64,000 nucleotides of DNA, taken from positions 17,385 to 81,384 of the forward strand of contig WGDC01000014.1 in NCBI GenBank assembly GCA_015493475.1, written 5' to 3'. Shown here piece after piece: positions 14,885 to 21,878 of this stretch. Under the pieces are notes generated by a model that saw only the letters and a list, made by a program, of their open reading frames with translations, searched no databases and was not told the DNA's origin. Within the stretch, counting starts at the first letter, position 1, and each line of letters begins with the position of its first letter. Source of the stretch: Deltaproteobacteria bacterium (GTDB taxonomy: Bacteria > Desulfobacterota > Dissulfuribacteria > Dissulfuribacterales > QOAL01). The translations under genes were made by a program, and so were the position numbers.

Positions 14885-17239
14885 TTGAACATCAAGACAG
14901 GAGCCACGAGAGGAGAGGTGTCAAATCAAATTTTTTCCGGAGGTATTCAAGCATTGAAGAAGACAGGCAATTTCATATCGTCCATGTCACTGTCCACACG
15001 GCTCATTCTTGGAATCACCGTTCTCATACTGTTGATTCTTGCCATTCAGGCAGGACTTTCAATCAGGCGGGCCAGGGCGAAAAAGCACAATCTCGTCGAG
15101 GAGGCACTTGAAGGAAAGGATGCTTTCATGAAGGAGGCGGACGACATCTCCATTGATCTTATGAAACAGGCCCTTATCATCTCCAACATACCGGAGGTGG
15201 AAAAGGCGGTAGCCGACAAGGACAGGGATTCCCTCATGGGAATCGTCCTTCCCATGGAAAAGGCCATGGCAAAAAACATAGGCCACCCCATAAAGATACA
15301 CTTTCACGTCCCGCCAGCCATCTCTCTCCTCAGGAGCTGGAAGCCGAACAAGCACGGGGATGACCTTTCATCCTTCAGGTTTTCGGTGGTAGAGGCAATA
15401 AGGGACAACAAGCCCGTAAAGGGTATCGAGGCTGGCCGGGGTGGCTTCGCCGTAAGGGCCGTCTGCCCCATTGACATGAACGGCGAGGTAGTGGGTTCAG
15501 TGGAGGTGCTTGAAAGCGGGGCCCGTGTGGCCAAGGCGCTCCAGAAACTCAAGGGTGAGATAAACCAACTCTTCTATCTTGAGAAAATCAGCGCCAATGC
15601 CGCGGATTCTGCTAAACGTATAGGCAAATTCATCATACTCACCCGGACAAATATGGGCCTTTCTAAGAAAATTGACGAGCCCTTCCTGGAAAAGGCAATT
15701 ACCAAGGGGTCGGCTGTAAAATTCGTGGGGAACAAGGTGATCACCGCCTCTGCCATAACCGACTTTGCGGGCAACCCCATAGCGGTTTACACGAGATACG
15801 TGGACTTTACAGCCATAAACAGGCAGATCAGGAATGAACTCATGGAGTTCGGATTACTTTCCATAGGCTGTCTTGCACTGTCACTGATACTCGTGGCGTT
15901 CCTGCTTAAGAGGTCTGTCGCCCTGCCCCTTAACAAATGCCTTGGGACCCTTACAACGACCTCCGAGGGAAGGCTCGTGGAACACGCCGAGCCTGAAGGG
16001 GCCCCGGAGATGCGCAAAATCGCGGTGGCCACCAACAACATCATCCTGAATACGGGCTCCCTCCTTGAAACCCTCAAGATTCAGGCAGGAAGCCTGAACG
16101 TGCTCGGCAGCCAGCTAGAAAAGATAGTCGACCAGATGCAGGAAGGCGCCCACGATATAGACTCTGCAGCCAAGACCATGGCGGAATCCTCGGCAACTGC
16201 CGCACAGACACTTTCCACTGTCGCCACGGCCTCAAACGAGCTGAACGCTGCAACCGGGGAAATCGCCCAGAACGTGGCCGAAACCGCCCGGGCCGCAGGC
16301 GAAGCCACGGACGAGGCTACCACCACCAACGACCTCATGAAACGCCTCGGGCAGCAATCAGAGAAAATCAAGGATATCATCGGGGTCATAAATTCCATTG
16401 CCGAGCAGACAAACCTCCTTGCCCTGAACGCCACCATAGAGGCCGCGCGCGCCGGAGAGGCCGGAAAGGGCTTTGCCGTTGTGGCAACGGAGGTAAAGGA
16501 GCTTGCAAAACAGACCTCAGACGCCACGGAAGAGATAACGGGAATCATAGGGTCGCTAACCACCGGCATTTCAGAGGCCGTTTCCGCAGTCGACAAGATC
16601 ACCGATACCATTAACAGGGTTAATGACCTCGCAAACACCATTGCCAGCGCGGCAGAGGAGCAGACTGCCACGGTCTCTGAAATAGATCAGAGCATAACAG
16701 AGGGGGCAAACAGCGTACAAGAACTCGAAAGCAGGGCAAACGCCCTTGCAGACAGGTCCAGCGACTTTGTCCGTTTCTCCGGCAGGGTAATGCTTGCAGA
16801 AGAGGCCATCCAGAACATTGGGCAACAGCTCGCTTCTGTTACCGGAATGTACCACGTTCGCCTCGGTGCCCTGGAGCAGGCCAAGGCACATGCCGGCGCC
16901 AAGGTCATGCTAATGGTTGCCGTACTGACCCACTTCAAGTGGCTTGAAGAATTCAGGATGGCCGTAATTAACACACAGGACCCAAGGGTGGAAGAAGACC
17001 CAAGGGCATGTCTGCTCGGAAAATGGCTCGAGGAACACAGCCATCAAGAAGCGGCAAGCCACGCGTCAACCATAGAAGAGATAAGGAGGCTGCACGATGA
17101 GCTCCACAGCACCGTATCCGAGGTGAGAAAGGCCATGAATGAAGGAAAAGATTCAATTGAACTTGCACGCATTTTTGACAACAAGGTTACCGGCAAGTTC
17201 AGGAGGCTTGTGGAGCTCCTGTTAAAGATTGCTAAATAA
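14885..17239 (+). CDS. Methyl-accepting chemotaxis protein with Cache-type sensor and C-terminal CZB domain
   Basis: Two TM segments, [30 protein letters not shown] signalling hairpin, CZB ligands H-FKW / CLLGKW / HDELH; start uncertain. Confidence 0.93.
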
Positions 17240-17278: not shown

Positions 17279-17307
17279 TTGACAAGGCACATGCCCCACC
17301 TTATTAT
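17279..17307 (+). promoter_or_regulatory. Sigma-70 promoter of tRNA-Gly
   Basis: TTGACA-N17-TATTAT 21 nt upstream of the tRNA. Confidence 0.75.
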
Positions 17308-17328: not shown

Positions 17329-17403
<75 letters not shown>

Positions 17404-17423: not shown

Positions 17424-17455
17424 GGGCACCCTTTGTGGCTGCCCTTTTCTTTTTT
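17424..17455 (+). terminator. Rho-independent terminator after tRNA-Gly
   Basis: GGGCA...TGCCC hairpin followed by TTTTCTTTTTT. Confidence 0.6.
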
Positions 17456-19307
17456 GCTTGTAGGCGCACGTCTTTACAAAAAGGTTGATAGGCATGCCGC
17501 CGCTTTCCTGCAGCTTGCGTTGCTGCTCTTTCTTTTCTTACAAGCTCCATGGACATCCAGTGCCCTTGCAGAAAACGCCCCACTTAAAAGGCCCAATAGG
17601 GTAACAAGAACCCTGAGCGGCCAGATCGACATGTGCCTTTCCTGCCACAAGGAAACCCTTGACAAGGCACATGCCCGGCAGGTACTCGGCTGTTACAGCT
17701 GCCACCTTGGGAACCCCCTTGCCGGGACCCCAGAGGAGGCTCACAAGGGCATGGTCTTAAACCCGGGGGACCTGCGGGTGGTGGACAGGACCTGCGGCCA
17801 GGAGGGATGTCACGTTCAGCAGGTCAAGGACGTAAAAAATACCCTGATGGCCACAAACAGGGGCATAATCAGCACCCTCAGATACTACTGGGGCGAGACC
17901 AGGAACCACAACGAGCCCCTTACGGTTGAAAAACTCCTTGAGGAAAATGCGCCAAAAAGCCTGGCCCTTGACTACTTCAGGAAACTTTGCGGCACCTGCC
18001 ACCTCTGGCTTCCAAGACATACCCTTCCCTCCTTTCTCTCTGCAAAAGGCGGCGGCTGCACTGCCTGCCACAATGTAAAAAAGGCAAGAGATGGAAGAGC
18101 CACCACCCATGACAGGCACCCCCTCATAACCAGGAACATACCCATGGAAAACTGCGTAAGGTGCCACAACAGAAGCGGCAGGATCGGACTTTCCTACCGG
18201 GGGCTTTACGAAACCGAGGGCTACGGCACCCCTTTTGAGGACGGGGAGACATCCTCCCTGCAACTCGAAGACGGACGGTTTGTCAAGAAAATCCACCCTG
18301 ACGTACACTTTGAAAAGGGGCTTGTCTGCATAGACTGCCACAGCCAGAAGGAGATCATGGGAGATGGCAAACAAAGGGCGCACCTTTTTGAGCAGGTGGA
18401 GATAAGGTGCACCTCCTGCCATAGTGGGAAAAAGGTCCTTGAAAGGCTTTTTCAGGAACAGGAAAGCAAGAAAAAATTCCCCATGTTGAATAACCTTGTA
18501 ATGGCAAGGGACGGACGCATCCTTCTTGAGGGCAAAAAGGACAAGAAGACCCACCCCTTGAGGCCCTTTTCCAGGGGAAAGTGCCGAAACCCCCAACACG
18601 TGCGCCTTTCCTGCCAGGCATGCCACAGTACCTGGGTTCCCCAGTGCTACGGGTGCCACGTGCGATTTGACCGCGGGAAACGTCAACTGGACAAGCTTGC
18701 CATAAAGAAAACCTTTGGCATGTGGCAGGAGTTTAAGTCCTACATGCGTTTTGAGAGCCCTGTTCTTGGAGTCATGGAAGAAAGGCCTAAAAACGAAGAT
18801 GGAAAGGAAGGGGAAGGAGGCAGGGTGGTCATCCTTGTGCCTGGCTGACAGGACTTTGTGAGCTTTCTGGATGAAAGGGAAGAGTTCAGGGGCACCTTTG
18901 AAAGGCTGACTGTCTCCACCATGGACCCTCATACCACAACCAAAAAGACAAGGACCTGCCGTGATTGCCACGAAAATCCAAAGAGCATGGGCCTTGGTTA
19001 CGGAAACATATTCCTGAAAAAAGACGGAAGCTGGGGCCTTACCCCTTCAAGCTCCGCAAATGCCACCATATTTGGACAGGACAGACGCCTTGACGCCTTT
19101 GTAAGCACCGATGGCGCACCGATAGTACACACAAGCAGAAAAGGGCTTAGGCCCTTTAACCAAAGTGAACTTGAAAAAATCGTACGCGTGGGCCTTTGCC
19201 TTCCATGCCACCCTGGCATGGACGACCCGGTGATGAAAAACTGGAAGGGAGACACCACCCCAAAGCCATGCAAGGCGTTTCTATACATGGCCCGCCCCGT
19301 CAAATGA
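17454..19307 (+). CDS. Multiheme (about 12) c-type cytochrome, predicted selenoprotein (UGA at 18846-18848 read as Sec)
   Basis: ORFs ending 18848 and 18858..19307 share one frame with a single TGA (VILVPG-U-QDFVSFL); 11 CxxCH plus one CxxxxCH; signal peptide; SECIS-like hairpin after UGA. Start uncertain (track start overlaps the tRNA; TTG 17454 chosen). Confidence 0.8.
18851..18887 (+). promoter_or_regulatory. Putative bacterial SECIS element of the multiheme cytochrome
   Basis: Lower stem GGACUUU/AGAGUUC, upper stem CUUUC/GAAAG, loop UGGAU starting 19 nt after UGA. Confidence 0.55.
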
Positions 19308-19316
19308 AACGGATAG

Positions 19317-19796
19317 ATGAAATTAGTAGCGGCCCTTCTCCTCTACATGAGGTCACTAAGGGTCTCTCCCATTTCCCTTACCCTCCCCTTTCTCGTATTT
19401 ACACCTGCATTCATGATACTTACAGGGGCCTTGATACTATGCGAGCACATGAAAGCCGCAGGAACCGCCGGGATAATGCTCATAATTTCAGTCAGCTACA
19501 CACTCTACCTTCCAAGTTTAAGATACGGCCTCACAGAACCCATAAGGGCCATGTTCAGGGAGCAGGGCTCCATGCTCATGCTCCTTGTTGTCTTCATCTA
19601 CTCCATAACCTCTGTCCTTGGAAAGCTTGCCATCCAGCACTCAAATCCCACCTTCTTTGCGAGCTTCTACTTCGTGGTCCACGGCCTCTTTGCAACCTGC
19701 GTCCTTTCCCTGATCTTCGGAACAAATCCGGTAGAGGTGCTGCGAAAGCGCCCAAAGGGAGACCTCCCCAAAAAACCTCATCTTGCAGCCGCCTAA
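19317..19796 (+). pseudogene. Truncated EamA/DMT transporter remnant
   Basis: Internal DMT motif SPISLTLPFLVFTPAFMILTG-LIL-E, then part of a second repeat; lacks N- and C-terminal helices of a ~290-aa EamA. Confidence 0.6.
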
Positions 19797-20141: not shown

Positions 20142-21878
20142 ATGGCTATTTCTTCTTCATTAAAAATCATTCAGTTTTTTCTCCTGCTAATCATTTTCTC
20201 GGCCGCCTTCTTACCCGTGCCTGTCCAGGCCGAGGCGACCCTTGAGGGTTCGGTCCACGAAGGCTTTGGTTGCGAGGTCTGCCACAACAGCCCTGAAGGG
20301 GGCGGTCCGGCCCATTGCACCAGGTGCCATGATGATCAGGCATATGCGTACAAGCATGGCATACACGCTGAAAAAAACAAGAATGGCCAGCCAAATGCCA
20401 GATGTTATGACTGCCATGGAAGTCACAATATCCTACCGGTATCCAATCCAAACTCCGTGGTCTCAAGCGGCAAGATAACCGACACCTGCGGAACCTGTCA
20501 TGCTCAGGAAAAGAAGGACTACGCCGGGAGTATCCATGGAGAGATATTTGAGGACGATCCAGATTCCGCGCCCGGGTGTCTGACGTGCCACGGCTACCAC
20601 AAGATAGGCCGGGTGAATATGCCTGGATTTGTCAAAAACACCGTAAAGACCTGCGGCAAGTGTCACCAGGACGCCTTTAAAACATACGAGGAAAGCCTCC
20701 ATGGTCAGGTAGTCACCCTCGAAGGCCGGGTTGGAGCAACATGCTGGGACTGCCATTCCTCCCATAAAATTGTTGAGGTTTCAGACCCTGCATCACCCCT
20801 TTCAGCCAAGAGGAAGGCCAAGACCTGCGGGAAATGCCATGGCAAGGTCAACTCTCTTTTCATGTCATACTGGCCACACGCATCACTACATGACAAGGTT
20901 AACTACCCCGTCCTCTACTACGCTTATATAATGATGAAAATGCTTTTTCTTGTAGTGATGGTCACCGCCACGATACACACCCTTGCCTGGCTCCGGGCCT
21001 TCCCCAAGATAGTAAAATCCAGAATCGAAACGCCGGGGCGTCATTACGTGTATTACCTGCGGTTCCGGGCTTGGCACCGGCTGACCCATTTCGTGTTGTT
21101 TATAAGCGTCTTAGGCCTTGCCCTTTCCGGCCTGCCCCTCCGGTATCCAGGCACTGAATGGGCCTGCAAGATATCAGAAATCCTGGGAGGGTTTAAGGCA
21201 TTAAACCTACTCCACAGAAGCATGGCCGGGCTCCTTTTCGTTGCCGTGGTACTGCATGGATATTACCTATTGAGGCTTATACGCGAAAAGGGCCTGAAGG
21301 GATTCCTGCAATTTCTCCGTTCGCCAGACTCCCTTTTCCCGAAGATAGAGGATTTCAAAGAGGCCTGGGAAGAATTCCTGTGCTTTTTAACATTCAGGGA
21401 GGAGCCTAAAAAGGATAAATGGAGCTACTGGGAAAAATTTGACTACTGGGCCGTATTCTGGGGCATGATCGTTATTGGTGGCTCAGGACTGATGCTGGCG
21501 TTTCCCAAGGTGACCACGAGCTGGCTCCCCGGCTGGGTCCTGAACGTGGCCCTCGTGTTCCACTCGGAAGAGGCTTTGCTCGCCGTATTCTTCCTGTTCA
21601 TTTTTCACTTTTTCCATGCACATCTGAGGCCGTTAAAATTCCCGATAGACGAAACCATATTCACCGGCAGGATCTCCGAGGAAGACTATTTTCACGAAAG
21701 GCAGCTTGAAGTTGCAAGAAAAAGCCCGGAGGAGCTCGAAAGGATGAAGGTACCACCCCCTAACTTCTTTTTCAGGGTGACCGTCTACATAGTAAGCTTC
21801 ATTGCCGTAGATATCGGACTTATCCTGATCGCATGTATTCTCTATACAGCCTGGAAAACAGGAACCTTGATACCATAA
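20142..21878 (+). CDS. CbcL-like multiheme cytochrome c / cytochrome b fusion (quinol-linked inner membrane protein)
   Basis: Signal peptide, 8 CxxCH, then FdnI/HydC-type b-heme domain (RF-HRLTH, LHR, KWSYWEKFDYWAVFWG, HSEEA, HFFH). Confidence 0.88.
   Translation: MAISSSLKIIQFFLLLIIFSAAFLPVPVQAEATLEGSVHEGFGCEVCHNSPEGGGPAHCTRCHDDQAYAYKHGIHAEKNKNGQPNARCYDCHGSHNILPVSNPNSVVSSGKITDTCGTCHAQEKKDYAGSIHGEIFEDDPDSAPGCLTCHGYHKIGRVNMPGFVKNTVKTCGKCHQDAFKTYEESLHGQVVTLEGRVGATCWDCHSSHKIVEVSDPASPLSAKRKAKTCGKCHGKVNSLFMSYWPHASLHDKVNYPVLYYAYIMMKMLFLVVMVTATIHTLAWLRAFPKIVKSRIETPGRHYVYYLRFRAWHRLTHFVLFISVLGLALSGLPLRYPGTEWACKISEILGGFKALNLLHRSMAGLLFVAVVLHGYYLLRLIREKGLKGFLQFLRSPDSLFPKIEDFKEAWEEFLCFLTFREEPKKDKWSYWEKFDYWAVFWGMIVIGGSGLMLAFPKVTTSWLPGWVLNVALVFHSEEALLAVFFLFIFHFFHAHLRPLKFPIDETIFTGRISEEDYFHERQLEVARKSPEELERMKVPPPNFFFRVTVYIVSFIAVDIGLILIACILYTAWKTGTLIP

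Follow-up and report, generated by a model that had tools for sequence, protein, structure and literature searches.

The window analysed here is the whole stretch of 64,000 nucleotides from a Deltaproteobacteria bacterium (assembly GCA_015493475.1, contig WGDC01000014.1, positions 17,385 to 81,384), and its plus strand carries at 17454..19307 a gene for a multiheme c-type cytochrome that is interrupted by one in-frame UGA codon. In silico analyses indicate that this gene very probably encodes a genuine and previously unannotated selenoprotein, a 617-aa dodecaheme cytochrome of the ExtM superfamily in which the UGA would be read as selenocysteine (Sec) at residue 465. The best explanation of the data as a whole, to which we give a probability of roughly 0.5, is a single gene whose product has its Sec at a heme site, receives electrons by a bc-type route and works on sulfur or selenium compounds.

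When open reading frames (ORFs) are read on the plus strand, the frame 17454-19307 is broken only by the TGA at 18846-18848 and is closed by a TGA stop at 19305-19307, as the preliminary description of this DNA had claimed. Read-through from TTG 17454 (another in-frame TTG, at 17433, is the alternative start) yields 617 aa, of which residue 465 is Sec in the context ...GRVVILVPG-U-QDFVSFLDER.... The joined product, of ca. 68 kDa, contains eleven CxxCH motifs (C61, C80, C179, C202, C234, C292, C319, C387, C398, C502 and C582) and a single CxxxxCH (C114-H120), which makes twelve hemes and agrees with the length and the motif tally given earlier. Residues 1-39 (17454..17570) are predicted to form an N-terminal signal peptide or membrane anchor, with a basic n-region and a hydrophobic helix followed by ...SSALA/ENAP, and a model computed with AlphaFold2 (AF2) has its N-terminal helix at residues 13-39. 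Ten of the heme-binding motifs lie 5' of the UGA (17634..18659; CxxCH at 17634, 17691, 17988, 18057, 18153, 18327, 18408, 18612 and 18645, CxxxxCH at 17793-17813) and are invariant both in a superfamily alignment that includes ExtM and in an alignment of 102 homologues. The C-terminal 152 codons (18849..19304), which would be translated only after Sec insertion, encode His493 and heme motifs 11 and 12 (18957-18971 and 19197-19211), all invariant; this part starts with acidic residues and is devoid of a hydrophobic leader, so that the earlier claim of a tail with two CxxCH and no signal peptide also stands. Judged from its sequence, 17454-19307 is a single gene for a predicted exported twelve-heme cytochrome c of the ExtM superfamily.

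The nature of the UGA was addressed by a six-frame search of 401 genomes of the phylum, from which the 30 best orthologous loci, window included, were examined. A TGA at the identical codon (the P-G-U-Q-D column) was found in 21 of these loci, with the tail following in the same frame and at constant spacing in all 21, and Cys in the other nine; the family spans nine GTDB families in this sample. The best 80 loci of a collection of named genomes comprise 38 with TGA and 42 with Cys. Among these 80, examples with TGA are the isolate Thermosulfurimonas dismutans S95 and metagenome-assembled genomes (MAGs) labelled Thermodesulfatator, Thermodesulfobacteriaceae, Dissulfuribacterales and SEEP-SRB2; examples with Cys are Desulfobulbus, Desulfocapsa, Desulfurivibrionaceae and the cable bacteria Ca. 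Electronema and Ca. Electrothrix. Full-length database homologues, of ca. 50% identity, read VPGCQD; Cys occupies the Sec column in 102 of 102 of them, and P463-G464-C465-Q466-D467 is invariant when the query is aligned with this set. A column holding Cys or a conserved TGA had been named beforehand as what would support Sec, and this is what the alignments gave; nor are the homologues two genes with variable spacing, since each is either one ORF with Cys or one frame in which the only TGA occupies that very codon.

Between the window and its closest relative, the ratio of nonsynonymous to synonymous substitution rates (dN/dS) is 0.12 (dS 0.48) over the 152 codons 3' of the TGA and 0.14 over 300 codons 5' of it. 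The genome encodes tRNA-Sec, selB, selD and selA, the last split over two contig ends, so that the Sec machinery whose presence the preliminary description wished confirmed was found, and selB was above cut-off in all 28 other orthologue-bearing genomes (20 Sec-type and 8 Cys-type). The selD gene (contig C70, 12852-13775) has an in-frame TGA of its own, so that the selenophosphate synthetase would itself be a Sec form. Sequencing reads of run X1, probably the source of the assembly and thus not independent support, cover the stretch including the TGA at a depth of 36 with no variant; those of run X2 cover 18549-18793 only and stop short of the TGA.

A hairpin resembling a selenocysteine insertion sequence (SECIS) lies on the plus strand at 18851..18887, with a lower stem of 7 bp (18851-18857/18881-18887), an upper stem of 5 bp (18863-18867/18873-18877) and the loop UGGAU (18868-18872). 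This structure, CUUUC-UGGAU-GAAAG, is the minimum free energy (MFE) fold of the 51 nt from the UGA, its loop beginning 19 nt after that codon, exactly as had been described; taken alone, it is not statistically remarkable (see below), and it is meaningful only because of the comparison with orthologues. That comparison covered all distinct 51-nt segments, 52 of Sec type and 47 of Cys type, with positions counted from the U of the UGA. The five core pairs (18-22 with 28-32) all form in 37 of the 52 Sec-type segments versus none of the 47 Cys-type segments. Of the 52 Sec-type segments, 28 have T-A and 16 have C-G as pair 21-29, and 42 have UGGAY as the loop; Sec-type loci without the full core pairing have the hairpin displaced by a few bases. 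A stem-loop shortly 3' of the UGA with a G early in its apical loop, which is a bSECIS-like descriptor modelled on bSECISearch, was detected at 19/21 and 38/38 Sec loci and at 1/8, 8/13 (outgroup) and 18/42 Cys loci; this descriptor is lenient, as 42-92% of synonymous shuffles of Sec-type loci also conform to it. RNAalifold predicted no consensus for 21 ungapped Sec-type sequences because the hairpin register shifts between lineages, and no SECIS family of Rfam matched at the gathering threshold or at E up to 10. The best explanation is that UGA 18846 would be decoded as Sec with the help of the hairpin that starts a few nucleotides downstream.

Two readings that dispense with Sec have to be set against these data. 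If UGA 18846 terminated translation, a 464-aa ten-heme cytochrome would be made and the tail would be a separate small gene or remain untranslated. This is how public gene callers read the gene, the closest database proteins (60-85% identity) being 409-524 aa long and ending at ...VPG; moreover, 39 short "hypothetical" clusters match the tail, for which GTG 18858 is a possible start, and some stopping at Sec codons is normal. Such a tail would, however, possess two heme motifs and an invariant His without an export leader, and it is held in frame at invariant spacing in the 21 TGA loci under a purifying selection equal to that on the body, whereas the Cys-type relatives are single ORFs and the hairpin 3' of the codon is specific to the TGA forms; termination as the sole fate of the message therefore appears very improbable. 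Even less weight can be given to an assembly or sequencing error, or to a recent nonsense mutation that would make the gene a pseudogene in this MAG. The assembly, in 99 contigs, does come from a hydrothermal vent metagenome and the one run with reads over the codon probably served to build it, but the same TGA is found in 20 other sample genomes and in 38/80 named loci, an isolate genome included, the covering reads (depth 36) hold no variant and the downstream dN/dS is 0.12, so that conservation has effectively refuted this reading already. Given the TGA conservation, the dN/dS values, the invariant downstream residues and the Sec machinery, sequencing error, pseudogene and two separate genes can be excluded for practical purposes.

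The best NCBIfam match of the selenoprotein is ExtM (NF040943), with 272 bits against a cut-off of 800; on this model the true ExtM proteins of three other genomes reach 970-1075 bits. Because its score is below the cut-off the protein is not an ExtM equivalog, and the resemblance to ExtM-type cytochromes that had been noted earlier thus holds at the level of the superfamily and fails as an equivalog assignment. ExtM (GSU2935) belongs to the Geobacter extHIJKLMNOPQS cluster, has ca. 600 aa and has the twelve heme sites in the same order (PMC5877670; this and the other articles cited are used in the part of their text that was accessible). The alignment of the window protein with true ExtM, the genome's own paralogue and other subgroups extends over the twelve heme sites, and these relatives have P-(G)-C-Q in common where Sec is found in the window protein. 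The motif shared with ExtM is P-G-C-Q, apart from Sec replacing Cys; P463, C/U465 and Q466 are invariant in the superfamily alignment with true ExtM. Differences from ExtM are an identity of 30-32%, the placement in a separate clade and the third heme motif, which is CxxCH in ExtM versus CxxxxCH here. The length of this third motif varies across the superfamily, with CxxCH in true ExtM, CxxxxCH in the clade of Sec and Cys orthologues and ca. Cx9-11CH in loci L054 and L058. The paralogue is a second ExtM-superfamily dodecaheme cytochrome, located on contig C97 (2364-4268); it has 634 aa, 12 CxxCH and a Cys form of the motif (IPGCQV), and it stands alone between a PIN-domain gene and greA.

In a tree rooted with ExtM, the Sec forms make up one clade of 22 rows (21 Sec and one nested Cys) with an SH-aLRT support of 98, its sister is a Cys clade of seven and all outgroups are Cys. 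Since the sister and the outgroups are all Cys and a single Cys is nested among the Sec forms, the fewest changes are one gain of Sec and one reversion. A profile search against 1.84 billion representatives returned 594 members of the superfamily at E up to 1e-30; a sequence search of the PDB gave nothing below E 0.08, and Foldseek gave 0 matches in the PDB at E up to 0.001. One database protein of another ExtM subclade (P0191, 549 aa, 42% identity to locus L054) ends exactly at ...VAPFVPG, which may reflect a second, independent switch from Cys to Sec or a truncation at a contig end; related metagenome loci in which the site was found all have Cys codons.

What occupies the Sec column in more distant relatives bears on the role of residue 465. 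Axial ligands of hemes are provided by Met, Cys, His, Tyr and Lys. The top 150 of the 594 representatives were aligned and 144 of them have a residue at this column, namely Met in 72, Cys in 48, Tyr in 7, His in 3 and Lys in 1, which makes 131/144 residues of the axial-ligand type; the remaining six of the 150 end before the column, three of them exactly at PG, and the Pro-Gly anchor is visible in the aligned contexts of the representatives. Conserved residues outside the heme motifs in the orthologue group amount to 7 His and 4 Met plus Cys465, for 12 hemes. In the AF2 model (pLDDT 80, pTM 0.80), strands 457-463 and 468-472 are joined by a turn to which residue 465 belongs. Because the relatives carry Met, Cys, Tyr and His at the same column, Sec465 may be a distal ligand or a reactive residue of the distal pocket, and we take its location at or in the distal-ligand position of one heme to be close to an even bet. 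The residues at this column in most superfamily members lend indirect support to the idea, put forward in the preliminary description, that the selenol might ligate a heme. Mechanistically, Sec465 would replace a Cys otherwise invariant in the orthologue group and in true ExtM, within a tight P-G-U-Q-D turn between beta strands, and would act as the sixth (distal) ligand of one heme or as a reactive residue adjacent to it. The resulting His/Sec heme would be analogous to the His/Cys hemes of sulfur-converting cytochromes.

Hemes of the latter kind occur, besides TsdA, in the sulfur proteins SoxAX and DsrJ. To our knowledge, no natural Sec form of these His/Cys-ligated sulfur cytochromes exists. 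The likeness proposed with TsdA is that a chalcogenolate would be both the sixth ligand of a heme and the centre at which sulfur compounds react (PMC13510729). TsdA, SoxAX and DsrJ differ in that they have two or three hemes and use Cys, and no such families appeared in the NCBIfam or PDB sequence searches made here. A selenolate as axial heme ligand is known from engineered P450cam, CYP119 and CYP125, which resemble the proposed His/Sec heme in this respect but are man-made b-type heme monooxygenases in which the proximal Cys was substituted, and hence neither c-type nor distal (PMC11273360).

A functional parallel comes from MccSep/ExtKL (GSU2937-2936; NF040886), a pentaheme selenoenzyme that acts as a polysulfide reductase, in which Cys239 ligates heme 2 and Sec325 attacks the substrate (PMC13510729, Sci Adv 2026). 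MccSep and the window family have in common a periplasmic multiheme cytochrome c (a location that is predicted for the window protein) with one in-frame UGA for Sec and a gene split by annotation, a Gly-Sec turn in a beta-rich part, the existence of both Sec and Cys forms, and an occurrence in the same phylum among sulfur-metabolising taxa. MccSep differs by its five hemes, its ca. 49 kDa and its motif PDGUPTPNR, versus twelve hemes, ca. 68 kDa and PGUQD here. No sequence relationship links the two, with no NCBIfam match to this family at E up to 1 and an hhalign probability of 11% that is limited to the heme motifs. MccSep was above cut-off in 42 of the 401 sampled genomes; in several genomes of the phylum its genes, with one TGA each, are immediately beside true ExtM, as in Geobacter. 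Co-occurrence with the window family was considered as a link and set aside, as MccSep is present above cut-off in 10 of 21 Sec-type genomes and there never adjacent to the cytochrome gene. Beyond ExtKL, the cytochrome-type selenoproteins in the accessible part of a 2026 selenoproteome review are the GSU2204 family CXXCH protein (NF041027) and the octaheme tetrathionate reductase family (TIGR04315), both multiheme or CXXCH proteins with recorded Sec forms (PMC13188914), and neither family is among the NCBIfam matches of the window protein at E up to 1.

Several observations weigh against parts of the reading of a hairpin-decoded Sec at a heme site supplied by a bc-type module. The window hairpin alone is no better than chance (z = -0.17; 80/200 shuffles fold at least equally well), MFE values compared with synonymous-codon shuffles did not separate Sec from Cys loci (mean z -1.30 vs -1.09, p 0.34), and a fixed-register count over 8 bp in 21 sequences gave 64.9% paired positions vs 59.5-62.5% at slides +1 and +2; the contrast between Sec and Cys hairpins is also in part a contrast between clades, whose kin are not independent. 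At the Sec column, 13/144 representatives have non-ligating residues (Phe 4, Gly 3, Pro 3, Val 2 and Arg 1) and ExtN has a gap. The orthologue group has a second invariant non-motif Cys (C377) and a third, C606, conserved in at least 90% of the 102-homologue alignment. Heme ligation by residue 465 is deduced from substitution patterns and not from a geometry that would bring selenium or sulfur to the iron, and the Sec of MccSep, the sole multiheme selenoenzyme with a solved structure according to the accessible text, does not ligate iron (PMC13510729). Finally, the window lacks the Rieske/cytochrome b neighbourhood described below, and so do 16 of 20 contexts.

Part of these observations would fit a genuine selenoprotein in which a heme takes its sixth ligand from another residue, e.g. 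the additional invariant Cys377, and Sec465, not bound to iron, acts in the distal pocket as a catalytic nucleophile, by analogy with MccSep. In MccSep, a beta-sandwich domain presents Sec on a D-G-U-P loop next to a His/Cys heme (PMC13510729), and Sec465 is likewise on a turn, P-G-U-Q-D, of a region that is beta-rich in the AF2 model; besides, a strict ligand position would be less tolerant of the Gly, Phe or Pro that some relatives have at the column. However, Cys377 is not kept in true ExtM or in the paralogues, in which Cys465 is invariant, Met in 72/144 and Tyr or His in 10/144 fit a ligand position better, and MccSep is unrelated, so that the analogy is one without homology. A free nucleophile appears to us on the unlikely side, although a serious contender. 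An improbable alternative is that Sec465 forms a selenenylsulfide with Cys377 or Cys606, as a redox switch or a structural link with no role at a heme site. The two conserved non-heme Cys would provide partners, and Sec-Cys redox pairs are used by many bacterial selenoproteins, but no partner Cys is conserved superfamily-wide whereas Cys465 is invariant, half of the distant relatives have Met, which is incapable of such a link, at this column, and there is no motif of the CxxU or UxxC type.

As to the partners of the cytochrome, genes for a Rieske protein and a cytochrome b are found directly upstream of the Sec gene in 4/20 contexts, and the genes flanking this pair in other genomes are housekeeping genes. 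Superfamily members of ca. 900 aa consist of an ExtP-like cytochrome b fused to an ExtM-like domain, with Met at the Sec column. In some genomes ExtM, like the window family, goes together with genes for a Rieske protein and a cytochrome b; in Geobacter it is in one cluster with the Rieske protein ExtO and the cytochrome b ExtP (PMC5877670). The setting of the ext cluster (extKL, extN, extO, extP; PMC5877670) does not recur in the window, where the neighbours are a tRNA-Gly gene, an EamA remnant and a c/b fusion, and ExtKL was not found above cut-off in the genome. This fusion (20142..21878, plus strand) joins a multiheme c-type domain to an FdnI/HydC-type membrane cytochrome b in 578 aa, with an architecture like that of quinol oxidoreductases and resembling that of Geobacter CbcL. 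Its product might be a quinol-side electron donor, and the gene was not found beside the orthologue in any of 20 other contexts.

We infer the following route. Electrons would enter from the quinol pool via a Rieske/cytochrome b module, encoded by adjacent genes in some relatives and fused in others, a role that the neighbouring c/b-type fusion protein might take in the window. The hemes in series would pass them on to the Sec heme, the site at which a compound of sulfur or of selenium (polysulfide, S0-derived species, thiosulfate or selenite) might be reduced or oxidised. Organisms with either form, Cys or Sec, mostly disproportionate or reduce sulfur or oxidise sulfide. Because of this sulfur metabolism and of the hydrothermal vent source, our best guess is a substrate that contains sulfur or selenium, and we propose only tentatively that the protein works on such compounds.

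The remaining features of the locus are as follows. A promoter-like site on the plus strand (17279..17307; TTGACA-17-TATTAT, an 11/12 match to the consensus and nothing beyond a consensus match) precedes both the tRNA-Gly(GCC) gene (17329..17403, plus strand), which ends 51 nt upstream of the cytochrome start, and the cytochrome gene. An ORF extension from 17307 that crosses this tRNA gene is spurious; the database proteins P0013 and P0031 begin with such a "translation" of the tRNA, gene callers having extended the ORF through it. A tRNA-Gly(GCC) gene directly upstream, on the same strand and in the window's order, occurs in 8/29 orthologous loci (the window, L005, L006, L010, L014, L015, L016 and L021). 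Just upstream, a large gene (14885-17239) encodes a methyl-accepting chemotaxis protein (MCP) with a dCache_3 sensor, an MCP signalling domain and a C-terminal CZB zinc-binding domain, and is found beside the cytochrome only in the closest relative. The EamA-like ORF at 19317-19796 is a remnant, as it matches residues 74-219 of a 288-aa homologue from a sister genome with 83.6% identity and has lost both ends. The c/b fusion, MCP and HDOD genes were considered as conserved partners and rejected, none being kept beside the orthologue beyond genus or family.

Public gene calls split the gene into pieces named "hypothetical protein", and the prediction that annotation pipelines would do so is confirmed by the database entries of 409-524 aa ending at ...VPG and by the 39 short tail clusters. 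Public annotation has missed the whole protein family. No description of a Sec-form ExtM or of a Sec-containing 12-heme cytochrome was found in the accessible literature, with the reservation that supplementary selenoprotein tables (PMC13510729, PMC13188914 and screens cited there) could list the family. In the accessible parts of these two sources, multiheme selenoproteins are very few, and MccSep (2026) is the only one characterised among cytochrome-type selenoproteins (PMC13510729, PMC13188914). ExtM is one of the cytochromes conserved in all Geobacter genomes examined and is there without an assigned function (PMC5877670).

A further-reaching interpretation, which we regard as speculative and doubtful, is that residue 465 makes its heme the first one in nature to be ligated by a selenolate. 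In that case the ExtM superfamily would consist of bc-complex-linked dodecahemes that tune one heme by swapping its distal ligand (Met/Cys/Sec/Tyr/His), and the Cys and Sec forms might act in the periplasm as so far unrecognised oxidoreductases of sulfur compounds in Desulfobacterota that disproportionate sulfur or oxidise sulfide, among them cable bacteria (Cys) and Thermosulfurimonas (Sec).

These data add to the selenoproteins a probable widespread multiheme family that has a cultivable member, Thermosulfurimonas dismutans, and within the uncharacterised superfamily of ExtM they single out one residue as essential for function. They also lead to the hypothesis that this residue may belong to the cytochrome subunit of an alternative Rieske/cytochrome b complex and serve there as a distal heme ligand that can be tuned. 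Should the selenolate be bound to iron, this would represent a cofactor state that has so far come only from engineered P450s, according to the accessible text of PMC11273360. A family model with a Sec flag would correct the annotation of many genomes.

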